Positions 1,149 through 15,010 of a stretch of 64,000 nucleotides of DNA are shown here, piece by piece; the first letter of the stretch is position 1, and every line of letters starts with the position of its first letter. Origin of the DNA: Deltaproteobacteria bacterium (GTDB lineage: Bacteria; Myxococcota; Kuafuiibacteriia; Kuafuiibacteriales; Kuafuiibacteriaceae); NCBI GenBank assembly GCA_040218735.1, contig JAVJQW010000061.1, forward strand, positions 96,001 to 160,000. The letters are read 5' to 3'. The position numbers were made by a program, and so were the translations under genes. Under the pieces are notes generated by a model. It was not told the origin of the DNA, ran no database searches, and was given only the letters and a program-made list of their open reading frames with translations.

Positions 1149-3977
1149 TCAGTCGACCCAGTGAAGGAAGTCGCGCAGCCGAACCTCGGTGGACGGCGCC
1201 GCGGTGGTCGACGGCATCTTCACGTCCTTCGACTCCAAGAAACGCGTGAGCTCCTCCCGGAGCGTGACGAGCTCCGAGTGCAGCTCGTCGCCAGCCGCCG
1301 ACACCATCGACGTCGGGAGCTGCGCTCTGAACGCCTGCACGCGCTCGGCATCGAGCTTGTACGCCTCGGTGTACAGCTCGGCGCGTCGCTCCAGCATCTT
1401 CTGGTCGACCTGACCGCTGCGGAACGTCGCGACGATCGCGTTGAGGAGCACTTCGATGCGCTTGTCCTTCGGCGGGTTGAGCTTCAGCGCAGCCTCGTAC
1501 CGCGCGAGGCCACCGGAGGGCTGCTTCTGAATCATGCGCATGTTGCCGACGTTGTTCTCGGCGCCCGCGGTCGGCTCCTTGCCGAGGCTCGCGTCGAACA
1601 TCGCCTGGGCCTCGTTCATCCGGCCGCGGCGCACCTCGAGGATGCCCGCGCGATTGAGCGACGCGGCGGTGTTCTGGGAGAGCGAAGCCTCGATGGTCTT
1701 CTTGACGCGCGCGTCGTGCGCGGCGCGGCCCTTCTTGATCTGCTGCTCCATGACCTTCGCCGTGACGAGCTTCGCCTTCGCGAGGTCGGCGGGCGTCAGG
1801 TCGATCGGCGGAAACGCCTTCCACGCTTCGGCGATGTGCACGACGTTCTTCTCCGTCACCGGCTTGCGCGCCTTCTTGGCGGCGCCGATCTCCTTCGCGC
1901 CGGCGGCCCAGGCCTCCTCGAATGACTTGCCGACCTTCGTGGTCTCCAGCGGGATCCAGTTGCTCCCGTAGAGGTTCACGTACCGATTCGGGTCGCGGAC
2001 CACCGCCGCCGCCGCGCTCTTCGGGAGGTTGGTCTTCACGCCGACGAACACGTGCCCCGGCGTGCGAATGAGGACCGCCGGGATCGACGCCGCCTGGAGC
2101 AACGAGGCGTAGACGACCGCGAGGTCATCACAGTCACCGTCACGGCCGGCGAGGGTCTCCGCCGGGAACAACACGTAGTCGAGGCCCTGCGTGTTCCACG
2201 GGTTCGCCGGATCGTGCCGGTAGTCGTGCTGCGACAGCGCTGCGAACAGCGCGATGGGCATCGCGAGCGCGTCGTCGCCGCCGGCCGCCTTCACCGCGGT
2301 GCGCGCCGACGCCACCACGTCGCGGATCTGCTGCGACTGGGGCGTCACGAAGGCCGCGATCGAGGTCGGCTTCTTCCAGTCCATGGCGTTGCGGTCCAGG
2401 ACGAGCACGCCGACCTTTCGTTGTCGGGCCGGGTACCGCTCGTCGTCGACGCGATACTTCACCTTCACCTCGAGCACCGACGTCGACGCCGCGTCCTGCG
2501 CGCTGAGTTTGGTGTGGTCGAGGTCGAGGAGGATCGGCACCGTCTTCGTCGCCTTCGGCGCCAACGTGATGGGCGCTTCGTTCTCGATCGCGGCACGCGA
2601 GAAACCGGTGAGGGACGCCGAAACGAAGACATCCTCGATCGCTTTTTGACCGCGGTTCACCAGCGTGACCGTACCGACGGCGCCGCCCACTTCGGCTGCG
2701 TTGCCCGCCTTCGCGTACGCCCCCACCCGCGCCGGATAGATCTCGTGCGCCGAGACGGTGAACGAGAGCGGGTCGTTCGGCGGCTCGACGATCACGGACT
2801 TCTCGAACGGGATCGCATCGCGGTGGCGCTGCACCGACTCCGTGAGCGCCGACTTGAGCGCCTCCGCGAGCTTGGTGGCGCACGTCCCCGCCTCGTCGAT
2901 CGGGCAAGACGTCGAGTGGGACGTGAGCACGCGTGCGCGATGCGTCGCCCGCACCTCACCGAACAGACGCAGCGTCTTCTTGTCCGCCGTGTAGGAACCG
3001 ACCAACGCGATCTTCCCGCGCTTGGCGGCCAGCGCCTTCTTCTTCGACACGAGGCCGGCGTCGGACGTGATGAAGTCGAGGTCACCGAGCGTGGCGCGCA
3101 CGACCTCGGGCACCTCGCGCGCCAGCCAGCCGTGTTTCTTCAGCCCGCCCTTCCGCGTGAACGCAGCCGCGGCGAGGGTGATGACACCGCGCGGACGATA
3201 CTCCGCGTGGACGAGGCGATCGGAGAACCGCGTGACGAAGAGCGGACAGGACGCCTCACCCGCGATCGCCTCGGCGATCGCAGGAGCATCCCGATCGTCG
3301 TAGACGTCGAGCCGAAGCTCGCGTCGGCCTTGAACGCCGCGTTCGACCTTCTCGGCCTTCGTCGCGTTGCGAACACACGCGATGACTTCGCTCCCGACGC
3401 GTACGTCGACGTCCGTCTGGTAGGTCACGCGGAGCTCGGTGCTGCGCGGCGAGCTCGTGCCCCGCCCGCGGAGGATCTCGTCGAGCTTCGGCACGATCTT
3501 CTGGGTGAGGTTCTTCGTCCCGTTCTGCCGCGCGCCGTGCGCGTCGAAGTGACGCCCGATCCCCTCGACGTTCACCGCGCCGTCGATCTTCGCGGACCCG
3601 GTGACGAGGACCTTGAGCCGAACGCCGCCGCGGTAGAGCGCGAGGCCCTTGATCGGTGAGTCCTGCGGGAGGAGCCGCACCTCGCCGATGACGAGTCGAT
3701 CGACGTCGATCGCGTCGACGAGGACCTTCCCGTCCGCCTGGAGCAGCGGCTTGTCTCCCGCCGCCGCACGCACGGCCGCGGCCTGCGTCGGGTCGACGAG
3801 CTCGATGCCCTCCACGGAGCGGAAGTGCTCGAGCAGCCGGAACTCGACGCTCGAAGTCGTCTCCTGCTTCCCGTCGATGTACTCGTCGATGACGATCGCG
3901 ACGCGCGTCTTGGCGGAGGCTTCGGTGACCCCCGCGATGGTGACCAGCCCGGTCAGGAGCGCAATCGAACCTCTCAT
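1149..3977 (-). CDS. Secreted protein with TolB_N/FlgO-like, Ig-like, transglutaminase-like and TPR domains
   Basis: Start moved to ATG 3977 (MRGSIALLTGLVTIAGVTEASA, signal peptide), coupled to the upstream stop. GDCDDLAVVYASLL...PGHVFVGV...WIPLETT gives a Cys-His-Glu transglutaminase-like triad. C-terminal TPR-like helices (LNRAGILE, AENNVGNM). Confidence 0.75.
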   Translation of the reverse strand: MRGSIALLTGLVTIAGVTEASAKTRVAIVIDEYIDGKQETTSSVEFRLLEHFRSVEGIELVDPTQAAAVRAAAGDKPLLQADGKVLVDAIDVDRLVIGEVRLLPQDSPIKGLALYRGGVRLKVLVTGSAKIDGAVNVEGIGRHFDAHGARQNGTKNLTQKIVPKLDEILRGRGTSSPRSTELRVTYQTDVDVRVGSEVIACVRNATKAEKVERGVQGRRELRLDVYDDRDAPAIAEAIAGEASCPLFVTRFSDRLVHAEYRPRGVITLAAAAFTRKGGLKKHGWLAREVPEVVRATLGDLDFITSDAGLVSKKKALAAKRGKIALVGSYTADKKTLRLFGEVRATHRARVLTSHSTSCPIDEAGTCATKLAEALKSALTESVQRHRDAIPFEKSVIVEPPNDPLSFTVSAHEIYPARVGAYAKAGNAAEVGGAVGTVTLVNRGQKAIEDVFVSASLTGFSRAAIENEAPITLAPKATKTVPILLDLDHTKLSAQDAASTSVLEVKVKYRVDDERYPARQRKVGVLVLDRNAMDWKKPTSIAAFVTPQSQQIRDVVASARTAVKAAGGDDALAMPIALFAALSQHDYRHDPANPWNTQGLDYVLFPAETLAGRDGDCDDLAVVYASLLQAASIPAVLIRTPGHVFVGVKTNLPKSAAAAVVRDPNRYVNLYGSNWIPLETTKVGKSFEEAWAAGAKEIGAAKKARKPVTEKNVVHIAEAWKAFPPIDLTPADLAKAKLVTAKVMEQQIKKGRAAHDARVKKTIEASLSQNTAASLNRAGILEVRRGRMNEAQAMFDASLGKEPTAGAENNVGNMRMIQKQPSGGLARYEAALKLNPPKDKRIEVLLNAIVATFRSGQVDQKMLERRAELYTEAYKLDAERVQAFRAQLPTSMVSAAGDELHSELVTLREELTRFLESKDVKMPSTTAAPSTEVRLRDFLHWVD

Positions 3978-4741
3978 CACTTCCCCCTTCGCAGCTCGAA
4001 ACGAATCGTGCTCTTCAACTCGGACGGGTCGGCGCTCGCCGTCGTGCTGAAGTCGATGTCGAACTGCTTCCCTCGCAGGTGACCTTCCCCGCACGCGATG
4101 AACGCGGCGTTCGGCTCCCCTTTCGTCACCCGCAGTGCGGTGAAGTTGCCGAATCGATCAGCGTCGAGCGCAAAAGCCATCGACTCCGAGAACCCAGGAC
4201 AATCCGCCAGCTTGGAAGCGGTCTGGGCGAGGTCGGATTGTGACTTCGATGCGAGCGTCCCGCCTTCGACCCGGAGGTCGCGCACGCGTGCGACGCGCGC
4301 GGGGACCTCGATCTTCGGCGTCTTGGGCGGAGGTGTGTTCGGCGGCGGTGAGACCGGCGGAGGCGGAGGCGCGATCTTCGTGGGCGGGGGCGGAGGGGTC
4401 TTGATGGCGATCGGCGGGACCACCGAGGCGGGCGCGCCGGGCTCGCCGCCTCTTAGGAGGAAGAAGGCGAGCGCGGCGGCGGCGGCGACTGCGAGTCCTC
4501 CGACGACGAATCGCGGCCAGACCGGCGGTCGAACAGGCCCGCCCGCGTGAAGCCGCCTCCGGAGGCGTTCGACGGCGTCGCGCTCGGCGGCCGGGAGTGA
4601 CTTGAGGAGCTCGGTGGCCTCCTCTTCGGCCCGGATCGAGGCGTTGACGCGGTTGCGTACGCGATTGATTCGCGCGCGGCTGGCTTGGGTGCCGTCCCGC
4701 AGGTCTTCGAAGGCGCGGTCGAGGCGGTCGTCGTCACTCAT
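3977..4741 (-). CDS. Anti-sigma-like bitopic membrane protein with Pro-rich linker and TonB-C/AgmX-like C-terminal domain
   Basis: ATGA overlap with the ECF sigma gene; single TM (FVVGGLAVAAAAALAFFLL); poly-Pro linker. Confidence 0.6.
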   Translation of the reverse strand: MSDDDRLDRAFEDLRDGTQASRARINRVRNRVNASIRAEEEATELLKSLPAAERDAVERLRRRLHAGGPVRPPVWPRFVVGGLAVAAAAALAFFLLRGGEPGAPASVVPPIAIKTPPPPPTKIAPPPPPVSPPPNTPPPKTPKIEVPARVARVRDLRVEGGTLASKSQSDLAQTASKLADCPGFSESMAFALDADRFGNFTALRVTKGEPNAAFIACGEGHLRGKQFDIDFSTTASADPSELKSTIRFELRRGK

Positions 4742-5337
4742 CGCACACTCCCCTTGGCAGGTCTGGGGTTGCGAGCACCGGGGGGGTCGATGCCTTCGGC
4801 CTCGAGGAGCTGCAGCAGCCGCTTCTTACCCAGCCGCAGGCGACCTCGGACGGTGCCCTCCGGGATGCCGAGCATCTCGGCGACCTCGGGGCCCGACCGC
4901 CCCTCCACGTGCACGAGGATCAGCACCTCGCGCTGCGCGGCGGGGACACGTTCCATGAGACGTCGGATCCGATCCGAAGATTCTTTGCGAATGACGTCCA
5001 TCGCGGGCCCCGGTGCATCGTCCGCCACGTCGATCTCCTCCTGGGCTCCGACCCACCTCTTGATCCAGGCGCGACGCCGATATTTGGCCACGGTCTTACG
5101 CGTGATGCCGTAGAGCCACGACTTGAACTTGGTCGGGTCCTTCAGTGAACCCAGCTTCGTGAGCGCGACGATGAAGACCTCGTGCGCGATATCCTCCGGG
5201 TCGAGCCGCGGTCCGCACAACCGCGTGGCCCAGGTGACCACCACTTCGAGGTACGGGTCCACCAGCTGGGACTGCGCGACCGCGTCCCCCTTGGCTGCCC
5301 GTTCGATCAGTTCGCGTGTCGGCGTGTCGATGACCAT
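4738..5337 (-). CDS. ECF RNA polymerase sigma factor
   Basis: Start moved to ATG 5337 with GGGAGGG RBS; region 2 DPEDIAHEVF...FKSWLYGIT; region 4 EVAEMLGIPEGTVRGRLRLG. Confidence 0.9.
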   Translation of the reverse strand: MVIDTPTRELIERAAKGDAVAQSQLVDPYLEVVVTWATRLCGPRLDPEDIAHEVFIVALTKLGSLKDPTKFKSWLYGITRKTVAKYRRRAWIKRWVGAQEEIDVADDAPGPAMDVIRKESSDRIRRLMERVPAAQREVLILVHVEGRSGPEVAEMLGIPEGTVRGRLRLGKKRLLQLLEAEGIDPPGARNPRPAKGSVR

Positions 5338-5371
5338 CCCCTCCCGACCGCGCCGTGCGCTCACATCGAAG

Positions 5372-5403
5372 AATCGATCAATTCGATTTTCGAGTGATCG
5401 ATT
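5372..5403. promoter_or_regulatory. Inverted repeat in the divergent promoter region, candidate operator
   Basis: AATCGATCA-N14-TGATCGATT with inner TCGA-ttt-TCGA, in the AT-richer gap between the two divergent operons. Confidence 0.4.
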
Positions 5404-5497
5404 GCAAGAACTCGATGCACGGTCAAGGCGGATGTCGGGGTTGCGTGCAATGTGGCACTGCGTTAGTCGCGACGTGGCTCGGGGAGGGGGGCGCTCG

Positions 5498-6052
5498 ATG
5501 CAACGCGCGGCGGTCGCACAAAGCTCGATCTTGTTGCTCACGGCGGCGCTGCTCAGCGTGGGTTACGCCTGCCGGTCGAACGGGGGTGAGTACCGCCGAT
5601 CCGAGCGCACGGCCGCGCGGTCGTTGGCGCTGGGCGAGGCCCCCGATGACCACACGATCTTCTTTCGAAAGAACCACGGCGGCGCCGCTTCCGCGCGCGA
5701 CGCCAAGTGTTCGTCGTGTCACCTCGGCGTCAGCGGGAGCCCGACGGACTCTTGCATGGACTGCCACGCCACGATGCGTCCGCGTGACCACACTTTGCGG
5801 TGGCGCGGGCCGGCGCACGGTCGCTCCTCGGCGATCGAACCCACCCGGTGCGCCACGTGCCACGAGGCCGACGTCTGCTCCTCCTGCCACGCAGTGCCGC
5901 CGCCGAGTCACTCGCCGCTGAGGACATTTCGGTTCCGGCACGCGCGGCCGGCCGCACGCAACCCACGGTCCTGCCTGACCTGCCATACGTTCGAATCCAC
6001 TTGCATCGATTGCCACGCGCTCGACGTCGCGCCGCCGGTGGGGCTGCGATGA
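5498..6052 (+). CDS. Hexaheme cytochrome c, probable lipoprotein
   Basis: Start moved to ATG 5498 after GGAGG; LLLTAALLSVGYA-C lipobox-like signal; CSSCH, CMDCH, CATCH, CSSCH, CLTCH, CIDCH in three diheme repeats. Confidence 0.88.
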   Translation: MQRAAVAQSSILLLTAALLSVGYACRSNGGEYRRSERTAARSLALGEAPDDHTIFFRKNHGGAASARDAKCSSCHLGVSGSPTDSCMDCHATMRPRDHTLRWRGPAHGRSSAIEPTRCATCHEADVCSSCHAVPPPSHSPLRTFRFRHARPAARNPRSCLTCHTFESTCIDCHALDVAPPVGLR

Positions 6053-7668
6053 GTTGGGTCGCCTCCGCCCTCCTCGCCCTCGTCGTCGCGCAAGCGCCGA
6101 CCGCCGAGGCCTCGCCCGAAGAGGACCAAACCGTCCGCGGCCTCGAGGAGCAACTCATCCTGCGCCTCGACGCGACGGCTGACTTCGCGCTGACGACCGC
6201 CGAAGGCACCAACGCGGCCGGCGTGGAGATTCCGCCGGACACACTCCGTGACTCGACCAACTTCGTCATCGGCGACCTGCGCATCGGCTCCCGCGGTCTG
6301 CTGTACCAACCGCTGAGCACCTACGCGATGGCCACCGGCGGGCTGAACCTCGCGGGCGCCCCCGCGACGGTCGCGCTCGAGGAAGTCATCGCCAACGACG
6401 CCGCGGTGCACCCGACGATCTACGACCCCTACGGCGGACAGCAAGTCTTCTTGCGCCTCGCCTACGCCGAGCTCGACGGACTCACGGAGCGTGGCGCGCT
6501 GTCGCAGATCTACGTGCGGGCGGGCCGCCAGTTCCACTGGGGTGTCGCGCCGGTGACCTTCGACGGCGCGACCCTCGCGTTCGACTCGGGCCTGCTCCGC
6601 GCGAGCGGTTGGTTCGGCCAGCGCGCGGGTGTCTTCGAAGCGTTCCAACCTTCGCCGGGCATCGTCGGCGGGGCGTCGGCGCACCTCGACTTCGACGACC
6701 TCGACGTCCCGCTCTTGATTCGCGCCGAGTACACGTTTGCGCGTCGCTCGATCGCGCTCGACCCACGCGACACTGCGAACCTCGGGCTGAACGATCTCAC
6801 CGCCACCTCTCACCTCGGCCGCGTGTCCGCGTTCTACGACGTCACCCGCGACCTCCTCCTGCAGGCGCGTGTCGACACCCTCGACCAGGACGTCACCCGC
6901 GCGCGGCTCGGCGTGCGTTATCTGAACGTGCTCGGTGCGCTGTCCGTCGACCTGGATCAGAAGATCGGTGAGGAAGCGATCTACGCGGTGAGTGGGATGC
7001 GGACGATTACGGTGCGTGATCAGCGAACTCAGCTCGCACGCCCCGCCGTCGTCGAGGCGTTCCGCCTGGGGATGACCGATCGCAGCGCCTATACCCACCT
7101 CGACGCGCGCTTTGCGATCGAGATCCTCCCATGGCTGGAGATCGAACCCACCGGCGTCGCGCACGTCGTGTACGGCGACCCGGACACCCTCACGCCGTGG
7201 GACGCGTCGTTCTACGGCGTCGGGTTGGGCGTCTACAGCCGCCACCGCCTCGACGATTCGGCCGGCCTGGAGGTGGACTTCCGCTACGACGGCCGGCTCT
7301 ACGATCGCGACGTCGACGGCCTCGGCCTGTACACGGACGCGGGCGCGGGCCCCGAGAAGCTCGCCAACGAATTCACGCTGGGTGTGAGTTATGCGCTCGC
7401 GACCCGAGCCATCGGAAAACGCATGCTCCAGCGGCGCTGGCTGAAGCTCGGCGTCGCCGGGACGGTGCTGCTCTACGATCTCGCAACCCCGCACGAGGAC
7501 GACATCGGTCAGGACACGATGTTCGGCGCGTCGGCCTCGGCGGAGTGGGTACCGAACGACTACGTGTCACTCGCGCTCCGCTACGAGATGGCGGTGGACT
7601 CGTCGTTGTTCCTCCCGGAGCTCGGCGCTATCCACGAGCTCTTCCTGCGGACGCGCTTCGTGTTCTGA
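6049..7668 (+). CDS. Outer-membrane beta-barrel protein, putative porin partner of the cytochrome
   Basis: ATG 6049 in ATGA overlap; signal peptide; alternating amphipathic strands (YVRAGRQF, LRLAYAEL); C-terminal RFVF ending in Phe. Confidence 0.75.
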   Translation: MSWVASALLALVVAQAPTAEASPEEDQTVRGLEEQLILRLDATADFALTTAEGTNAAGVEIPPDTLRDSTNFVIGDLRIGSRGLLYQPLSTYAMATGGLNLAGAPATVALEEVIANDAAVHPTIYDPYGGQQVFLRLAYAELDGLTERGALSQIYVRAGRQFHWGVAPVTFDGATLAFDSGLLRASGWFGQRAGVFEAFQPSPGIVGGASAHLDFDDLDVPLLIRAEYTFARRSIALDPRDTANLGLNDLTATSHLGRVSAFYDVTRDLLLQARVDTLDQDVTRARLGVRYLNVLGALSVDLDQKIGEEAIYAVSGMRTITVRDQRTQLARPAVVEAFRLGMTDRSAYTHLDARFAIEILPWLEIEPTGVAHVVYGDPDTLTPWDASFYGVGLGVYSRHRLDDSAGLEVDFRYDGRLYDRDVDGLGLYTDAGAGPEKLANEFTLGVSYALATRAIGKRMLQRRWLKLGVAGTVLLYDLATPHEDDIGQDTMFGASASAEWVPNDYVSLALRYEMAVDSSLFLPELGAIHELFLRTRFVF

Positions 7669-7678
7669 GGCCAGTGCG

Positions 7679-9859
7679 ATGGGCAACACGGTCTTCTACA
7701 CGATCCACGCGAGCAACAAGATCTCCGCGGACGAGATCGAAACGCGGCTCATGCCGCTCGCGTTCCTCCCGCCCAACGACAAGGAGCGGCGGCGACTCGC
7801 GTCCGGCGTGCTTCGGTCCTACTCGGCCGGCGAGAACATCTTTGCGCAAGGTGAGTACGGCACGTCGATGTTCGCGCTCATGCGCGGGCGCGTGAGCCTG
7901 CAGCTCGCCTCGGGGTTCGGTGCGGAGGCGCCGGGTTCGGAGGCGCAGAAGGGCATCGACATTCCGCTTCGGGTCCTCGACGCGGACGGTGATCAAAACT
8001 GGTTCGGTGAACGGGCCGTGCTCGGGCGAGGCCTGCGACCGTACACCGCGTGTGCGCTCACCGACGTGATGGTCCTGCAGATCGACAAGATCGACATCGA
8101 CCGCCTCGACGGCACGTACGGCGACGTCATCGCTCAGCTCGAACGCCTCTCCGAGCAGAACACGATCGAGACCTTCCTCCTCGGGCACCGCGCCTTTGCT
8201 TCGCTCACCTCGCGCGACCTACGACCCATCTGGTCGAACGGGCGACTCCGACAGTACGGACGCGGTGAAGTCATCGACCAACGTGGCGGATCCTCGGACA
8301 CCGTTCGGCTCGTGAAGGGCGGCGTGGCCAAACTCACCCGGGCGGGCGTCGGCGCCAACGCGCACGAGATCGTGCTCGCCTACTACGGCAGTGGGGATGT
8401 GGTCGGCACGGACGCCTCGCGGAGCCGGATGGGTTCGTTGCTCGCTATGAGTGTCACGGAGGTCGTGGAGGTTTCGAGGAACGCCTTCGACCAGGTCCGC
8501 GCGGTGGCCGAGGTGCAGCGCCCCGGTTGGTCCGAGCAGTTCGAGAAGGTCACCCTCGACGCCAACGATGCCCCCTCGCGCGTGAAGATCGGCGACGGCG
8601 CCTCTTCGCTCTTCCTCAACCAGCTCCTCGCCGACACCGCACAGGACGCGAAGTCACTGATGACCATCGATCTGGATCTCTGCATCCGGTGCGGCAACTG
8701 CGTGCGCTCCTGCGAGGCGCGCCACGGTTTCCCGAAGATGGTGAGGCGCGGAAACAAACTCGATCGCACGCCCGCGAACCCATCCGACCCCAAGCCGCTA
8801 CTCATCCCGACGTCGTGTCGTCACTGTGAGTCTCCGGAGTGCATGGTCGGGTGCCCGACCGGCGCCATTCACCTCAAACCCACCGGTGAGGTCGCGATTC
8901 GCAACGACTGCATCGGCTGTTCGAACTGCGCGCTGCGTTGCCCGTGGGACAACATCACGATGGTCGCGAGAGAGAAGGTCGAGCGGCCGGAGCTCGGGAT
9001 CGTCGTCGAGGAGATCGCGAGCAAGTGTGACCTCTGCTTCGGCTACTCGGAGGCCAACTGCGTCTACAACTGCCCGACGCAAGCCATCTTGCGCGTGGAC
9101 CCCGTGCAGTTCTTCCCGGAGGTCGCTGCGCAGCTGCCGGAGCGCAGGCACGCGCCGCAGGACGCGACGAAGCGCCGCACGGGTGCGGCCCGTGACCTCT
9201 CCCGGCTCGTCATCTGGTCCATCGCCGCGGTGCTGTTCGCGGTCCTCACGGCACTGTGGGCCACGGCGACTCCGTACAGCCCCGCGTCGGCGCGAGGCGG
9301 TGTCCTCGGTGGCGTCGCGCTGCTGTGTTTCGCGGGCGCCACCGCGCTCGCATGGCGAAGGCGGCGCAACGGGCTCGGGCGCCTGAAGGAGGAAGAACGA
9401 AACCGGCGCGCCGCCGACGCCAACGCACCATCCTCCGGGCGCGTGCAGTGGGGCCCGTTCTACCTGTGGGCGCGCGCGCACGTCGCGCTCGGCACGCTCG
9501 GGCTGGGCGCCGCGTTGCTGCACGCGGACTTCGCCGCGCGGAGCCTGCTGTCCGCGGGCCTCGTGTTGATGATGTTGTTCGCGATCGCGACCGGGCTGTT
9601 CGGCGTCTTCTGGGCGCGTTGGATGCCGAAGGCGATCACCCGCATCGAAGGGGACGCCCAGCTCGAAGAGGACCTGCGCGACGAGCTCGCGACGGGACTC
9701 GCCGACGAAGCCCGAGTCGCGCAGCTCGAAGCGGGGCTCCGCCTTCACGCCGTGCGACGTGTCTGGCTCGTCGCGCACATCTGCACCGCGGTCGGACTCC
9801 TCGCGCTCCTCGCGGTGCACGTGGTGGTGGGCCTTCGCATCCTGGGGGCGATGCTTTGA
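7679..9859 (+). CDS. Fusion: 2x cyclic-nucleotide-binding domain + DmsB/NrfC-like 4x[4Fe-4S] domain + ferric-reductase-like membrane domain
   Basis: cNMP motifs IFAQGE and FGERAVL...R; Cys motifs CIRCGNCVRSC, CRHCESPECMVGCP, CIGCSNCALRCP, CDLC...CVYNCP; about 5 TM helices with two H-x13-H pairs. Confidence 0.85.
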   Translation: MGNTVFYTIHASNKISADEIETRLMPLAFLPPNDKERRRLASGVLRSYSAGENIFAQGEYGTSMFALMRGRVSLQLASGFGAEAPGSEAQKGIDIPLRVLDADGDQNWFGERAVLGRGLRPYTACALTDVMVLQIDKIDIDRLDGTYGDVIAQLERLSEQNTIETFLLGHRAFASLTSRDLRPIWSNGRLRQYGRGEVIDQRGGSSDTVRLVKGGVAKLTRAGVGANAHEIVLAYYGSGDVVGTDASRSRMGSLLAMSVTEVVEVSRNAFDQVRAVAEVQRPGWSEQFEKVTLDANDAPSRVKIGDGASSLFLNQLLADTAQDAKSLMTIDLDLCIRCGNCVRSCEARHGFPKMVRRGNKLDRTPANPSDPKPLLIPTSCRHCESPECMVGCPTGAIHLKPTGEVAIRNDCIGCSNCALRCPWDNITMVAREKVERPELGIVVEEIASKCDLCFGYSEANCVYNCPTQAILRVDPVQFFPEVAAQLPERRHAPQDATKRRTGAARDLSRLVIWSIAAVLFAVLTALWATATPYSPASARGGVLGGVALLCFAGATALAWRRRRNGLGRLKEEERNRRAADANAPSSGRVQWGPFYLWARAHVALGTLGLGAALLHADFAARSLLSAGLVLMMLFAIATGLFGVFWARWMPKAITRIEGDAQLEEDLRDELATGLADEARVAQLEAGLRLHAVRRVWLVAHICTAVGLLALLAVHVVVGLRILGAML

Positions 9860-12800
9860 CGCAGGAACGGCACGTCGTCGTCGAGGACATCGACGCCGAA
9901 GGTACCGGCGAGCTGATCCTCGCGCGGTACGCGGACCGCGCCGCGCTGTCGTTCCTCTTCGGCCCGCACGAGGGGCGCCACGTCTTCATCGGCGACGGGC
10001 CGCTCACGTTCGGGAGCGGGAACACGTGTGATGTCGTCCTGGACGGCGACGGCGTCGCGCGGGTGCACGCGAAGATCGATCGCGACGGACCGAACTGGAT
10101 CCTGACGCGCCTCGACGCATCACTTCCGCTCGCGGTGGACGACCGCGCCGTCGCTTCGGCGTGTGTGTTGATCCACGGCGCCACGATCTCGGTCGGGCCG
10201 TCCCACGTCGTGTTCCTCACCGACGTCGTCGACCGCCGCGAAGGCACGCTCGCCGCGACGGTGCCCGCGTCGGCCGAGGCGGCGCGGTTCGTGTTGCCCG
10301 ATGGCCCCGCCAAGAAGCCGGGTGTGCTGCTCGGCTCGAGCCCGACCTGCGACGTGCCGCTCCTCCTGCGCAGCGTGCAGCGTCGACACGCGCGCATCGA
10401 CTACCGCGTTCGACCGACGGAGGGGGGCCCGCTCACCGGGGCCTTCGAGCTGTCGGATCTCAGCGGCGGTTCGACGTTCGTCAACGGCGACAAGGTTCAT
10501 AAGAAGTGGCTCGACACCGGGGACGTGATTCGCCTCGGCGGCTACGAGCTGCGCACGACGATCCGCGAGAACCGCTGTGAGATCACCGCGGCGGTCGTGG
10601 AACCGGACCGCGACATCCCGAGCTACGCGATCGACGTCCCCAGCGGACGAGCGGGCGCCACCGTGCTCCCGCGCCCGTCGGACGCACGCTCCGCCCAGGC
10701 CGCACCGCCGCGCTTCAGCCTGCAACCCAAGGACGGGAGTGTGTTCCGCACGCCGACCGAGATACTGCACAACGGCGCGACGATCCTCGCGCCGCAGGTC
10801 GCGCCGAAGGACAACCGCCTCGCGGTGAAGTGGAAGGAGCCGGACGACGTCCGCACGAGCACCCGGCTCCGCAACGCGGTCCTCGTCAGCGTCGCGCTGG
10901 GTGTCGTCACGGCCGGCGCGCTGATCTTCGCGGGCGGTGACGAGGTCTCCGCGCTCCCGCCCGTCCGCCACACCCAAGATGTCGCGTGCGCGAGCTGCCA
11001 CGTCGGAGGCGCGGCCGCCACGCCGACCGTCGAGGCCTGCACCAGCTGTCACGAACACGAGGGGTACGAGCATCGCGTCCGCCCTGCGCACGCGTTCGGC
11101 GAGGACATCACGAGCTGCGCCGACTGCCACGGCGAGCACCGTGAGGCGTCGGAGCCGAAGCAGGTCGCGAGCGCGCGATGCGCCGCGTGTCACGAGTCGC
11201 GGCATTCGAAGCTCGTCGTTCGCGGCGCCCCGCCCGAGATCGTCGAGGCGCCGGGGATCTTCGCGGACGTCGAGGAGACACCTCGACCGTATCGACTCCA
11301 GCTGCACCGCCTTCACGACGCGGTGCCGCACCGGTGCCGTGCGTGCCACGAAGCGGACGGTGCCGCGCGTTCGCCGGGCGCAGCCTGGAACGCGTGCGGG
11401 AGCTGCCACGTCCAGCTCGCCGAGGGCCTCGCGATTCAGTCGTGCGCGAGTTGCCACGTCGAACACCGCGACGAACGCGCCGCGCCGGCGGAGCGCACGT
11501 ACGCCGCGGCGAGCGCGTTGCCGTGGTCGGCGGGGATCGTGCTCGGGTTCTTGTTGTTGACGGCGCTGCTGCTGCGCGTCGTGCCGAGCCGCGCGCACGA
11601 GCGGGAACGCAAGGTCACGCACGAGGAGGTTCCGCCGCCGGGGCTCGGACGCAAGAAGGAGCTCGAGACACCGCCGACCGAGTGCCCCGGTGCGGAGCGT
11701 GGACAAGCGATCAAGCTGCCTCGGCTGTACCCGGAGAAGTGCGTCGGGAGTCGGACGTGTGTGGAGCGCTGCCCGTACAACGTGCTCGAGATGAAGGACG
11801 GCCTCCCCGAGCTGGTCGCGCCGCACAAGTGTCACGAGTGTGGGATCTGCGTGGAGGTTTGTAAGTTCAACGCGCTCGAGATGGTCGAGCCGAACAAGCC
11901 GGCCAAGACGGAGGAAGTGCCCGCGCTGTCCGCCGACTTCGAAACGGGGCTCACGCCCGAGCGGCGCGGCCTCTACGTGATCGGACACGCAGCGGGCGTG
12001 TCGAAGGTGAAAAACGCGGCCAACCTCGGGGTGTGGGTCGTGCAGCACATGATCGACGAGGGCGGTGTGAAGCCAGGGGCCGCGGCGCGACTTGGACTGT
12101 CCGCCGAGGTCATCATCCTCGGCGCCGGCCCCGGTGGGTTGGCGGCCGCCGTCAACGCGCGCGAGGAGGGGCTGACTTCGATCGTCTTCGACGTGGAGGA
12201 CGAAACACTCTCCACGATTCGTAAGTACGGCGCGACGAAGAAATACGAGGCGAACCCACCCCACGTCGAGAACAAGGGTCCGTTCGTGCTCGAGACCGGG
12301 CAGCAACCTGGCTTGCTCTCGGCGATCGAGAGCGTCGTCGTTCGCGCGGACCTCGACATCCGGTTGGGCGTGAAGCTCGCGAAGGAGAACAGCCTCACGC
12401 AGGACGGTGACGTGCTGACGCTCGACACGAATCAGGGCGCCTTCACGGCGCTTCGGTTGATCGTCGCGGTCGGGATGGGAGAGCCGCGCAAGCTCGGACC
12501 CGAGGTCCCGGTCGCGCCGGGTACGGACATTCGTTACTCGATCGTCGAGGGTGAGCCGCCGAAGGGTAAGGCGGTGATGGTGAACGGCGCCGGTAACATG
12601 GCGCTGGAGGTGGCCGCGCAGCTCGAGGCCCGCGGGAATCGGGTGACGATCATCTACCGCGGAGACAAGTTGAAGAGCGCGAGCCCCGGGAACGTCGAGA
12701 TGCTGGAGCAGCTCGTCGGAGCGGGGCGGCTGACACTCCTCATGGAGACGTCTCCGGTGGCGCTCGCGCCCGGCGCGGTGACCGTGCGCACGAAGGACGC

Positions 12801-12966
12801 CCCGTCCGACCAGCGCATCGACGCCGACGTGTTCTACTGCCTGATCGGCCAGATCGCGCCCACGAAGTGGCTCGATGGCCTCGGCGTCCCGGTCAAGGAC
12901 CGCCCGATGACGGAGCGTGTCCCCCGGACCGACCAGCCTCAGTTCTTGCTGCGCAAACAGGAGTGA
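9856..12966 (+). CDS. Fusion: FHA-FHA / TM / heptaheme c / TM / 2x Fe-S ferredoxin / TrxB-like FAD-NAD(P)H oxidoreductase
   Basis: Start moved to TTG 9856 (TTGA overlap). FHA motifs FGSGNTCDVVL..VARVHAKI and LGSSPTCDVPL..VQRRHARI..STFVNG. Seven CxxCH. CVGSRTCVERCP and CHECGICVEVC. IILGAGPGG and GAGNMALE..IIYR. Confidence 0.85.
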   Translation: MTQERHVVVEDIDAEGTGELILARYADRAALSFLFGPHEGRHVFIGDGPLTFGSGNTCDVVLDGDGVARVHAKIDRDGPNWILTRLDASLPLAVDDRAVASACVLIHGATISVGPSHVVFLTDVVDRREGTLAATVPASAEAARFVLPDGPAKKPGVLLGSSPTCDVPLLLRSVQRRHARIDYRVRPTEGGPLTGAFELSDLSGGSTFVNGDKVHKKWLDTGDVIRLGGYELRTTIRENRCEITAAVVEPDRDIPSYAIDVPSGRAGATVLPRPSDARSAQAAPPRFSLQPKDGSVFRTPTEILHNGATILAPQVAPKDNRLAVKWKEPDDVRTSTRLRNAVLVSVALGVVTAGALIFAGGDEVSALPPVRHTQDVACASCHVGGAAATPTVEACTSCHEHEGYEHRVRPAHAFGEDITSCADCHGEHREASEPKQVASARCAACHESRHSKLVVRGAPPEIVEAPGIFADVEETPRPYRLQLHRLHDAVPHRCRACHEADGAARSPGAAWNACGSCHVQLAEGLAIQSCASCHVEHRDERAAPAERTYAAASALPWSAGIVLGFLLLTALLLRVVPSRAHERERKVTHEEVPPPGLGRKKELETPPTECPGAERGQAIKLPRLYPEKCVGSRTCVERCPYNVLEMKDGLPELVAPHKCHECGICVEVCKFNALEMVEPNKPAKTEEVPALSADFETGLTPERRGLYVIGHAAGVSKVKNAANLGVWVVQHMIDEGGVKPGAAARLGLSAEVIILGAGPGGLAAAVNAREEGLTSIVFDVEDETLSTIRKYGATKKYEANPPHVENKGPFVLETGQQPGLLSAIESVVVRADLDIRLGVKLAKENSLTQDGDVLTLDTNQGAFTALRLIVAVGMGEPRKLGPEVPVAPGTDIRYSIVEGEPPKGKAVMVNGAGNMALEVAAQLEARGNRVTIIYRGDKLKSASPGNVEMLEQLVGAGRLTLLMETSPVALAPGAVTVRTKDAPSDQRIDADVFYCLIGQIAPTKWLDGLGVPVKDRPMTERVPRTDQPQFLLRKQE

Positions 12967-12996: not shown

Positions 12997-13944
12997 GTGA
13001 TGCTGCTGAAGAACGCCCGCCGCCTCGTGATCCTCTGCACCGCCGTCCTCCTCACGAACCCGCTCACGGTCTGTGTCGTGGGCCGAATCAACCGCCTCCT
13101 CGGCCGCCCGCTATGCACGATGTTCGTAGGTTACGCCGCGAGCCGGGAGTACAGCCAGGCCTACGCCTTCTCGTTCATGCTTCCCTGGATTCGCTACACG
13201 CCGATGATCGTCGGACTGTTCATCCAGAACGGGCGACTCGGAATCATCGCGATGACGAGCTCGGTCGAGCCCGACTTCCTGTCGCCGGTGCACCTCGACC
13301 GGCTCCACGAAGGCTGCCACCGAATCGCGGAGCGCCTCGGCATCGAGGAGGTGAACTTCTCGGGCATCCTCCCCACGGTGTTTCGGCGCGCGGGGCTGAT
13401 GACCGAGCTGCATCATCAGTCGCGCTGTCGTGTCGTGGGTCGCGTCGTGACGGACGCGGCCATTCGCACCGCGGAGGCACACGACATCGACGCGTACCTC
13501 CCGATCGTCCTGTTGGGCGGGCGCGGCAGCGTCGGTCGAGCGGTCTCGGCGGAGCTGGGACGACGTGGACGCACGTGTTTCATCGTGGACCTGAACGATC
13601 GATGGCCGGAGCACCTCCGCGGCGAGCGCATCCTCCTCGTCGACGTTTCCAAACGCGGCGCGCTCGAACGCCGCGCGTCGCAGCTGTGGGAAGGCGTCGT
13701 GGTCCTCAACGAGGCCTACCCCGAGCCCGACCCCGGCACGGTCCGCGCGCTGCGCGCCCGCGGGATCGCGGTGCACCACGTGTGCGGCGTCGCGGCGACG
13801 TCCTTGCCGCCCTTCCCGGGCGCGTACGCCGGCGGCGTCCCGTGCTGCGCAGCGCGAGAAGATCCGGGACTTCGGGCCGTGGTCAAGACGCTGAGTGGCG
13901 TCCCGCGACGAAGCGCGGCGAACAAGACACGTCGCGCCGCCTGA
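12997..13944 (+). CDS. Rossmann-fold protein, possibly related to acyl-ACP reductase / COG5322 dehydrogenase
   Basis: GGAGGT RBS; IVLLGGRGSVGRAV nucleotide-binding motif; VNFSGILP; last gene before a terminator. Confidence 0.55.
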   Translation: MMLLKNARRLVILCTAVLLTNPLTVCVVGRINRLLGRPLCTMFVGYAASREYSQAYAFSFMLPWIRYTPMIVGLFIQNGRLGIIAMTSSVEPDFLSPVHLDRLHEGCHRIAERLGIEEVNFSGILPTVFRRAGLMTELHHQSRCRVVGRVVTDAAIRTAEAHDIDAYLPIVLLGGRGSVGRAVSAELGRRGRTCFIVDLNDRWPEHLRGERILLVDVSKRGALERRASQLWEGVVVLNEAYPEPDPGTVRALRARGIAVHHVCGVAATSLPPFPGAYAGGVPCCAAREDPGLRAVVKTLSGVPRRSAANKTRRAA

Positions 13945-13971
13945 ACCTCTCGATCGAATCGAACTTCGAAG

Positions 13972-14015
13972 AGACCCGCTCGCAATTTCGCGAGCGGGTC
14001 TTTTTTCGTTTTTTT
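13972..14015 (+). terminator. Rho-independent terminator
   Basis: 12-bp perfect stem AGACCCGCTCGC/GCGAGCGGGTCT, 6-nt loop, followed by T-rich tract TTTTTCGTTTTTTT. Confidence 0.9.
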
Positions 14016-14062
14016 CTCGCGGCGGTGATCGAACCCGAGACCTCTCTTCACGGAGAGGTCAA

Positions 14063-15010
14063 ATGGAGATCATCAACATGAACACCGCCCTCACCCGCAT
14101 CGTCGCTTCGTTCGCCTGTGCTTCCTTCGTCGCCTGCGGCGGCGTCGCGCCGACCGACACCACGGCCGCGAACGCGTCCACGCTCGAGGTGCAGGTGGAG
14201 CCGTCGATCGTCGACTCCATCGCGACCATGGGGAAGGACTCGCGCTACTTCCGTGACCTCATGAAGCAGGCCAGCATCCTCGACCTCTTCGACAACCCAC
14301 GCTTCCAGGTCACCGTCTTCGTGCCGCACCGTAGCGCGCTCGAGGCGTACATGGAGCGTCGCCCGTGGCTCGCGAAGCCGGGCAACGAAGACGAGCTCGC
14401 GGAGCTCCTGCTCGGGCACTTCGTCCCGGGTCGCATCGAGCAGAGCGCGCTCCGCGGCGCCGACCTCGCAACGCTGGTCGACGACGTCGGCCTCGCGATC
14501 GTCGACCCGCAGGTGCGGCTCGGCTCGCGCACCGGGCGTACCGCGAACATCCACGGCCTTGCTGCGAGCGCCTTCTCGGGGAACGTCTTCACGATCGACG
14601 ACGTTCTCCCCCCGCACGCCGACCTGACGACCGCGCTGCGGGCTCGCCGCCCCCTCTTCGCCGCCGCCTTCGAAGTCGCGTACCCCCGCGGCCTGCCCCG
14701 CGAGCTCACCGTCCTGATGCCCGACGACCAGGCCCTCCTCGACGCCCGCCTCGACCTCGCCGCGATCCAGTCGGGCCGCGTCGACCGGCAGGTCGTGGAC
14801 TTCGTCCGCCGCCACACCATCGACGGCCGCATCACGCTCGACGACCTCGAGAGCCGCAAGCTGTTCACCCTCGCCGGCGCCCCGGTGCGGGCCGAGGCGA
14901 CGAAGCACGGCCCGATGCTCCGCGTGGGTCGCGACGCCAAGGTGCGCCTGCTCGACACCGACATGCACCGCGACGATGGCGCCATCCACGAGCTCGACGG
15001 GGCGCTCTGA
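14063..15010 (+). CDS. Lipoprotein with two fasciclin (FAS1) domains
   Basis: Start ATG 14063 or 14078; FVA-C lipobox; VTVFVP..LLLGHFVPG..VFTIDDVL and LTVLMPDD..RHTIDG..GAIHELDGAL. Confidence 0.8.
   Translation: MEIINMNTALTRIVASFACASFVACGGVAPTDTTAANASTLEVQVEPSIVDSIATMGKDSRYFRDLMKQASILDLFDNPRFQVTVFVPHRSALEAYMERRPWLAKPGNEDELAELLLGHFVPGRIEQSALRGADLATLVDDVGLAIVDPQVRLGSRTGRTANIHGLAASAFSGNVFTIDDVLPPHADLTTALRARRPLFAAAFEVAYPRGLPRELTVLMPDDQALLDARLDLAAIQSGRVDRQVVDFVRRHTIDGRITLDDLESRKLFTLAGAPVRAEATKHGPMLRVGRDAKVRLLDTDMHRDDGAIHELDGAL

Follow-up and report, generated by a model that had tools for sequence, protein, structure and literature searches.

What does a protein do that carries cyclic-nucleotide-binding (cNMP-binding) domains, a relay of iron-sulfur (Fe-S) clusters and a histidine-bearing membrane domain in a single polypeptide? 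The question is raised by gene C, the third of four tightly packed genes (here A, B, C and D) on the forward strand of contig JAVJQW010000061.1, from a Deltaproteobacteria bacterium of the Kuafuiibacteriaceae (Myxococcota; GenBank assembly GCA_040218735.1). The whole stretch of DNA analysed, 64,000 nt in length (contig positions 96,001 to 160,000), is referred to as the window, and coordinates are those of the window. An initial annotation, made from the sequence of this DNA, had described gene C as a NOX/ferric-reductase-like di-heme b domain fused to Fe-S and cNMP-binding domains. The public names of gene C relatives are 'cyclic nucleotide-binding domain-containing protein' or 'Fe-S-cluster-containing dehydrogenase component', and leave the heme domain unannotated. 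Our analysis leads us to propose, with a probability of roughly 0.6, that the product of gene C is the inner-membrane core of a conduit made up of several proteins, which takes electrons from NAD(P)H and exports them to c-type hemes.

The membrane domain of gene C

Gene C opens with an ATG, preceded at 10 nt by GAGG, and closes with a TGA stop. The open reading frame, Pfam and AlphaFold2 together bore out the order given by the initial annotation, in which a membrane histidine domain follows two cNMP domains and a four-cluster domain; no Pfam model matched the protein past residue ~480. The last 227 residues (P0002; residues 500-726, nt 9176-9856) served as the query for membrane-domain searches, the start of the domain lying nearer nt 9176 than nt 9200 as first given. 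An exhaustive phmmer search with P0002 against 1.84 billion representative proteins returned 83 matches at E ≤1e-3, of which 22 reached E ≤1e-10 and one E ≤1e-30. Both H-x13-H helices were present in 71 of the 83, the remaining 12 being short and apparently truncated. A word-index search with residues 490-726 gave a sole match, an orthologue of 94% identity. The Protein Atlas returned unnamed clusters only for the membrane domain (score 0.87-0.90), and the clusters of ten short relatives were all named 'hypothetical protein' or carried no name. A metagenome contig scan with a single protein, aimed at stand-alone membrane forms, yielded one locus; its 'short' membrane protein turned out to be the tail of a 741 amino acid (aa) fused gene, which has a multiheme cytochrome and an FHA gene as its neighbours.

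For the analysis of conservation, an alignment of 72 rows (A1) was assembled from 70 of the 83 phmmer matches, P0002 and a paralogue from the same genome, with 13 matches omitted as truncated (P0015, P0018-21, P0025, P0026, P0034, P0048, P0055, P0056, P0077 and P0079). The sole invariant columns were W597, H601, H615, H700 and H714 (72/72 rows), at a mean column identity of 14%. The same five residues were invariant in 23/23 full-length relatives, as were R560, P650 and E657. Four of the five histidines of the membrane domain belong to the two H-x13-H motifs, contained in WARAHVALGTLGLGAALLH (residues 597-615) and WLVAHICTAVGLLALLAVH (residues 696-714), and both motifs fall within transmembrane (TM) helices, helices 3 and 5, by hydropathy and AlphaFold2. 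The conservation of these histidine motifs is far beyond chance: all four residues singled out by the initial annotation are retained in every aligned relative.

The AlphaFold2 model built with A1 contained five long membrane helices (pLDDT 92.5, pTM 0.84), with short amphipathic helices in the cytoplasmic loops of the domain. Lysine and arginine are dense before TM1, in the TM2-TM3 loop (RRRR and six more) and in the TM4-TM5 loop, and number 0-1 in the other loops. This clustering places the Fe-S domain inside the cell and makes helices 3 and 5 parallel, both running from inside to outside. In this topology, the H601/H700 pair would lie near the inner face of the membrane and the H615/H714 pair near the outer face, as expected if two hemes b are stacked there. 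Because four histidines and one tryptophan are invariant in 72/72 rows, a transmembrane two-heme-b cytochrome fused to Fe-S and cNMP domains is a well supported prediction for gene C.

The cytoplasmic TM4-TM5 loop (residues 649-691) is much shorter in gene C and in an orthologue of 96% identity than in the other full-length relatives, with ~100 residues of helical insert missing. The conserved P650-x6-E657 and E664-D665 motif is retained where this loop begins.

Cyclic-nucleotide and iron-sulfur domains

The cNMP and Fe-S domains of gene C are necessarily cytoplasmic, because the protein lacks a signal peptide. The cNMP_binding model (PF00027) matched two stretches at 65.3 bits, against a cut-off of 27.5. 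In domain 1 the cassette residues are conserved (G110 in 21/21 rows, E111 and R120 in 19/21 each), while domain 2 is degenerate in the alignment and lacks the arginine, in agreement with the earlier reading that the first domain keeps FGE...R and the second is degenerate. The DmsB-like four-cluster domain proposed at the outset was likewise found: Fer4_11 (PF13247) scored 30.3 bits at residues 375-470 (cut-off 26.2), with further Fer4 models from residue 328, and the cysteines form four groups of four, 15 of them invariant and the sixteenth nearly so in the 23 full-length rows. NCBIfam models group this part with AegA, DsrO, ArrB, HydN and DmsB-type four-cluster proteins, all below their equivalog cut-offs. 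Among solved structures, chain 6cz7_B comes closest (E 3.4e-15), with HycB, PsrB ('NrfC'), ActB and FdnH next, and the sequence matches also include ArrB, FdnH (1kqf_B) and NarH (1q16_B).

The operon and its conservation

Gene C lies within a compact group of four plus-strand genes (Table 1), in which A and B overlap by ATGA, B and C are separated by 10 nt, and the stop of C shares TTGA with the TTG start of D.

Table 1. Coordinates of the four operon genes and of the domains and motifs of genes C and D in the window
Feature	Coordinates	Strand	Description
Gene A	5498..6052	+	184 aa hexaheme cytochrome c; signal peptide, 6 CxxCH; start inferred, ribosome-binding-site-like GGAGG
Gene B	6049..7668	+	539 aa outer-membrane beta-barrel (predicted); signal peptide; C-terminus ...RFVF
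Gene C	7679..9859	+	726 aa; cNMP x2, 4x[4Fe-4S], 5-TM two-heme-b domain (predicted); from ORF (open reading frame), translation, Pfam and relatives
cNMP-binding domain 1 of C (residues 46-143)	7814..8107	+	Best PF00027 stretch; phosphate-binding cassette FGE...R..T kept
cNMP-binding domain 2 of C (~residues 188-280)	8240..8518	+	Second PF00027 stretch; range from NCBIfam; cassette degenerate
Four-cluster ferredoxin domain of C (residues 328-470)	8660..9088	+	DmsB/NrfC/ArrB type, 16 Cys; Fer4 models
Membrane domain of C (residues 500-726)	9176..9856	+	5 TM helices, N-terminus in, C-terminus out; AlphaFold2 and K/R charge
Helix 3 motif W597-x3-H601-x13-H615	9467..9523	+	W597, H601, H615 invariant 72/72
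Helix 5 motif W696-x3-H700-x13-H714	9764..9820	+	H700, H714 invariant 72/72; W696 nearly invariant
Gene D	9856..12966	+	1036 aa; FHA x2, TM, 7 CxxCH, TM, 2x[4Fe-4S], FAD/NAD(P) flavoprotein; TTG start
Heptaheme c domain of D (residues 378-534)	10987..11457	+	Predicted periplasmic; between TM 338-360 and TM 555-576
2x[4Fe-4S] (residues 624-676) and Pyr_redox_2 flavoprotein (residues 751-1017) of D	11725..12906	+	Cytoplasmic; Pfam

The product of gene A matched Cytochrom_CIII at 26 bits. Gene B had no Pfam match, and its AlphaFold2 model of ~26 strands has a low pLDDT of 58; the Atlas lead is BBP2_2. Foldseek with this model gave 41 matches at E ≤1e-3 with low TM-scores, and those listed were membrane beta-barrels, mostly of bacterial outer membranes (OprO/P, OprD, LptD and AlgE). 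The heme stretch of gene D showed a weak match to chain A of 6r2q (E 2.4e-4) and to cytochrome c7. We take 6r2q to be the MtrCAB complex and its chain A to be the decaheme MtrA; the PDB search tool labels 6r2q_A (333 aa) 'Cystathionine beta-synthase', which looks wrong. The flavoprotein part of gene D is without a CxxC redox disulfide, and its nearest solved relatives are thioredoxin-reductase (TrxR)-type ferredoxin-NADP reductases and YpdA (5ygq_A, E 1.9e-10; 7a7b_A, 2zbw_A and 3ab1_A).

Related loci were sought in one genome per species across 185,579 species. At least 406 related stretches were confirmed, and the neighbourhood counts given here refer to the best 80 of them. These 80 loci belong to Myxococcota (Kofleriaceae, Haliangiales and Polyangiaceae) and Acidobacteriota (Pyrinomonadaceae, Blastocatellia and Bryobacteraceae). 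Downstream sequence of at least 6 kb was available for 48 loci, and in 38 of these tblastn with the window proteins detected a D-like gene directly downstream on the same strand. Five of the ten loci without such a match were examined, and four of these encode a ~480 aa protein that combines an FHA-like N-terminus with seven CxxCH motifs. Gene order is conserved across the two phyla, and the invariant core is gene C plus an FHA-anchored heptaheme cytochrome.

The fifth of the examined loci (L030, 8512-11757), from an Acidobacteriota metagenome-assembled genome (MAG), carries a split C, with genes for a 521 aa cNMP/Fe-S protein, a 298 aa four-histidine membrane protein and a 241 aa FHA protein. 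The membrane gene matches P0002 at E 3e-08 with both histidine helices aligned, and the split form is also present in a family of Myxococcota, there as short open reading frames. The split at L030 shows gene C to be a fusion of two units that also occur separately. A third joining was seen in P0193 and P0213 (798 aa, from a gammaproteobacterial Stenotrophobium MAG), where a Pyr_redox_2 flavoprotein is fused to the cNMP and four-cluster Fe-S domains. The Pyrinomonadaceae encode the Fe-S flavoprotein on its own, as a TM-anchored protein of ~520 aa. The genome of the window itself holds a second copy of the module on contig C67 (locus L112, 7765-12980), consisting of a 9-heme cytochrome c on the minus strand, a 780 aa C paralogue with both H-x13-H motifs and a 595 aa gene with FHA and seven CxxCH; neither flavoprotein nor barrel was detected at that locus.

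Sampling of 301 Myxococcota genomes found the membrane domain in 47, and in 36 of the 255 of high quality. Its distribution by family is patchy, with 12/19 genomes positive in the family from which the window comes and 16/40, 8/11 and 3/115 in others.

An extracytoplasmic function (ECF) sigma factor gene (Sigma70_r2/r4, Sigma70_ECF; 4738-5541, minus strand) is divergent from the operon; the start listed for it probably lies too far upstream. The next gene encodes a proline-rich single-TM protein (3977-4741, minus strand) that could be the corresponding anti-sigma factor. The sigma factor may serve specifically to regulate the conduit.

Relationship to cytochrome b families

We then asked to which family of cytochromes b the membrane domain belongs. 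PF01794 (Ferric_reduct) did not match gene C, either with the whole protein at E ≤0.1 or with residues 500-726 at E ≤1. Among the 72 members of A1, Pfam matches at E ≤1 were to DUF4405 (36), Ferric_reduct (17), Ni_hydr_CYTB (15) and PepSY_TM (3), four families that we take to form one Pfam clan of two-heme cytochromes; P0002 itself matched none of the four at E ≤1. A single relative, P0033, exceeded the PF01794 cut-off (31 vs 28 bits), and the other matches were sub-threshold.

Profile comparison by hhalign used reference sets drawn from relatives, comprising eight MsrQ/NOX-like, nine b6-like and two Ni_hydr_CYTB proteins. A1 aligned with the ferric-reductase set at 19.5% probability (E 1.2e-3, 59 columns, the second helix-3 histidine aligned), as against 3.7% with the b6-like set and 0.6% with the Ni_hydr_CYTB pair. 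A DUF4405 reference set built from the relatives' PF14358 hits was rejected when these turned out to be bc-type cytochrome b, and the sequences were reused as the b6-like control. In Myxococcota genomes (L091-L109), helix B of bc/b6-type cytochrome b gives PF14358 scores that exceed the gathering cut-off, so that DUF4405 labels resting on PF14358 alone are unreliable.

The fold was compared with an exhaustive structural aligner, which warns that Z below ~13 is not decisive for helical bundles; all of the values that follow lie below this mark. A designed two-heme bundle reached Z 10.0 (7ah0), and the best matches among natural proteins were to membrane proteins with two hemes or one: STEAP4 (Z 9.2, 156 residues aligned, 18% identity), CybB (9.0), cytochrome b561 (8.5-8.7), b6 (8.4), human NOX5 (8.2, 150 residues aligned, 20% identity), Dcytb (8.2), HyaC (7.8) and FdnI (7.6). 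FoxB/PepSY-type chains were absent among the structural matches listed, which does not exclude a likeness to them.

The ferric-reductase family is thus the nearest by a thin margin, and both profile and fold similarity are weak. Bis-histidine pairs on helices 3 and 5, both at x13, agree with that family. Membership is not established, and gene C lacks both a Pfam match and six TM helices, features by which the family is defined; it has five helices by AlphaFold2 and hydropathy. The label 'NOX/ferric-reductase-like' therefore holds as an analogy and as the weak best of several similarities, and fails as a statement of family membership.

Proposed electron path and alternative explanations

These observations are best explained by a conduit in which NAD(P)H would reduce the FAD of the TrxR-type flavoprotein of D. 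Electrons would pass from FAD to the two [4Fe-4S] clusters of D and then, through a presumed contact between D and C, to the four clusters of C. From there they would reach the inner heme b (H601/H700), the outer heme b (H615/H714) and the seven periplasmic c-hemes of D, and would leave by way of cytochrome A and barrel B, an exit of the porin-cytochrome type. Regulatory input would probably come through the cNMP domains of C and, in D, the FHA domains. Outward flow is favoured because of the membrane potential.

Several results weigh against this proposal. A sequence profile of the membrane family found nothing significant in the PDB (best E 0.022, an unrelated helical protein), and Foldseek with the membrane model gave no PDB match at E ≤1e-3. 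Unrelated helical bundles reach structural Z values equal to those of the cytochromes, Z 8-10 being common for such folds. A-like genes lie beside C in 16 and B-like genes in 9 of the 80 loci (tblastn), in both cases a minority. The C67 paralogue and several Acidobacteriota loci have only C and the FHA-heptaheme gene; the flavoprotein is not universal, and since such loci exist NAD(P)H is not an obligatory donor. Finally, we infer both the direction of flow and a path free of quinone, and a quinone intermediate is compatible with the evidence.

The alternative that survives best, which we nevertheless consider unlikely, is that gene C belongs to a quinone-coupled module like FdnH-FdnI or NarH-NarI, acting on menaquinone at one face of the membrane, with the heptaheme protein as a separate quinol dehydrogenase. 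The combination of a four-cluster ferredoxin with a di-heme b is that of FdnHI, NarHI and HybA-type enzymes; FdnH and NarH are among the matches of the Fe-S domain, and FdnI and HyaC among those of the fold (Z 7.6-7.8). These likenesses are offset by the 0.6% hhalign probability against the Ni_hydr_CYTB pair, and by the translational coupling and near-universal adjacency of C and the FHA-heptaheme gene, which favour a direct complex. No quinone-site motif was identified, although no search was aimed at one.

Less probable still is that gene C is a true member of the ferric-reductase/NOX family, whose outer heme reduces O2 or Fe(III) directly and which forms a split NADPH oxidase with the flavoprotein. 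Such membership would account for the spacing and position of the histidine pairs, which match those of NOX, for the ferric-reductase set being the best of the three in hhalign and for the 17 of 72 relatives that touch PF01794, one of them above the cut-off. Of the structural matches, STEAP4 and NOX5 also extend over the largest part of the domain and show the highest identity (18-20%), and a 2024 preprint calls the PtdF protein, discussed below, 'ferric reductase-like' (bioRxiv 10.1101/2023.11.21.568154). Gene C itself, however, has no PF01794 match at E ≤1 and one helix too few, and the Z values tie with those of other cytochrome b families and unrelated bundles. There is no FNR-type FAD/NADPH domain, the TrxR-type flavoprotein reaching C through Fe-S clusters, and the one constant partner of C, a heptaheme cytochrome c anchored in the membrane, stands ready to accept electrons at the outer face.

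Of the split NADPH-oxidase-like module put forward in the initial annotation, the logic stands: the succession of pyridine nucleotide, flavin and two hemes resembles NOX. The parts differ, the flavoprotein being of TrxR type, and c-type hemes are a likelier acceptor than O2 because the operon contains the heptaheme domain of D, the barrel and the hexaheme cytochrome. NOX-like superoxide production appears less likely.

Inward flow, from periplasmic or extracellular donors to a cytoplasmic acceptor, or a role as a redox sensor acting through the cNMP and FHA domains, has similarly poor odds: flavoprotein-less loci, in which C is independent of an NAD(P)H donor, the two kinds of built-in signalling domain and the divergent ECF sigma factor gene just upstream would fit it, but inward movement opposes the membrane potential (established bioenergetics), six Fe-S clusters, FAD, two hemes b and 13 hemes c with a barrel are a heavy outlay for a sensor, and cNMP and FHA domains are usually ligand-binding inputs rather than outputs.

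A second messenger and phosphothreonine partners could plausibly regulate the proposed outward conduit, because the cassette of cNMP domain 1 is intact across the family and FHA is retained everywhere. We speculate further, and tentatively, that gene C might be a second-messenger-gated electron valve, in which cAMP or cGMP and phosphothreonine binding by FHA would directly open and close the path from NAD(P)H to the outside. Such a valve, which we regard as somewhat doubtful, would be a bacterial counterpart of the calcium-gated NOX5 and DUOX, with a multiheme wire as its output. It might serve Myxococcota and Acidobacteriota of soils and the sea in reducing substances outside the cell, such as metals or humics, or in generating reactive oxygen directed at prey.

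Comparison with described systems

Gene C shares with NOX/DUOX, STEAP and MsrQ/YedZ (PF01794) two bis-histidine sites on parallel helices 3 and 5 and, on the proposed path, a cytoplasmic reductant and transmembrane passage of electrons. It differs in that both spacings are x13, whereas in the MsrQ-like set helix 3 carries one histidine and helix 5 carries H-x12-H; gene C would also be fed by Fe-S clusters, has no fused FNR-type domain and probably has heme c as its acceptor.

The association of a four-cluster ferredoxin relay with a membrane di-heme b is found in FdnH-FdnI and NarH-NarI, as well as in PsrB and ArrB modules. Tmc, Hmc and DsrMKJOP are transmembrane complexes of sulfate reducers, and Tmc and Hmc bring together cytoplasmic Fe-S proteins, cytochrome b and periplasmic multiheme cytochromes c. 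In gene C the Fe-S domain is both cytoplasmic and joined covalently to the cytochrome b; the molybdopterin or CCG-type catalytic subunit is missing here, and cNMP and FHA domains are added.

MtrCAB and the Pcc systems of Geobacter resemble the present operon in having an outer-membrane barrel gene beside small multiheme cytochromes c. Both the barrel and the cytochrome are smaller here, at 539 aa and at 184 aa with 6 hemes, and the inner-membrane feeder is altogether different. Gene B showed no sequence-level match to MtrB.

The closest parallel in gene content is the ptdABCDEFG operon, described in silico as a proposed porin-cytochrome complex whose function is 'completely unknown' (bioRxiv 10.1101/2023.11.21.568154). 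In that preprint, PtdA is a pentaheme cytochrome, PtdB a porin, PtdC an FAD/NAD(P) oxidoreductase, PtdD a tetraheme cytochrome, PtdE a cNMP/4Fe-4S protein, PtdF a 'transmembrane ferric reductase-like protein' and PtdG a decaheme cytochrome. The hosts are given there as marine Proteobacteria, Nitrospirales and Planctomycetes, and the term 'FHA' is nowhere in the text. Residues 1-480 of gene C, with two PF00027 stretches and four Cys4 motifs, resemble PtdE as so described, and the fused C-terminal domain resembles PtdF as a histidine-bearing TM protein; the flavoprotein would correspond to D residues 751-1017 (Pyr_redox_2) and the porin to barrel B.

The differences from the Ptd proteins as described there are that the PtdE-like and PtdF-like parts are fused here, that the flavoprotein is fused to a multiheme protein, and that FHA domains are added. 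The heme counts are 6 (A) and 7 (D) rather than 5, 4 and 10, and the hosts are Myxococcota and Acidobacteriota. From this architecture we infer a variant of the named Ptd-type conduit in which parts have been fused and FHA domains are present. Neither the fusion of PtdE-like and PtdF-like parts nor an FHA-heptaheme-flavoprotein partner was found in print in our literature searches.

DUF4405 and FezC proteins with four such histidines have been shown to bind heme b, and DUF4405, FezC, PepSY-like and MsrQ-like proteins, all with four central histidines, have been proposed as transmembrane electron carriers, according to one study (mSystems 2024, PMC11334425). As portrayed there, these families resemble gene C as four-histidine, two-heme-b membrane proteins of extracytosolic electron transfer, and the DUF4405 model is the one that touches more members of A1 than any other Pfam model. 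The systems of that account are tied to ApbE flavinylation or ferrosomes, whereas gene C is tied to Fe-S, cNMP and multiheme-c partners.

If the proposed conduit is correct, it would be a widespread route free of the quinone pool, by which cytoplasmic NAD(P)H is connected across the inner membrane with signalling domains placed within the wire. The union of a sensor, an Fe-S relay and hemes within a single chain would make gene C a convenient first target for the study of second-messenger control of electron flow. The fused form could also help in finding extracellular reductions carried out by non-model phyla such as Myxococcota and Acidobacteriota.

Flanking genes and environmental occurrence

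Beyond the sigma factor region, the operon is flanked by a gene for a 981 aa secreted protein without a Pfam match (1149-4094, minus strand), a fasciclin-domain protein gene (13895-15010, plus strand) and a gene for a FlgO/CsgG/PEGA-domain protein (15015-17543, minus strand). These are cell-envelope genes with no evident tie to the conduit. Half or more of the sampled 31-mers of 5498-12966 occurred in contigs of six further runs, whereas no RNA dataset was listed for this stretch, a result that does not bear on expression. The six runs, which belong to three other studies, are labelled as sponge, aquaculture and biofloc metagenomes, a slight hint of a saline aquatic habitat.

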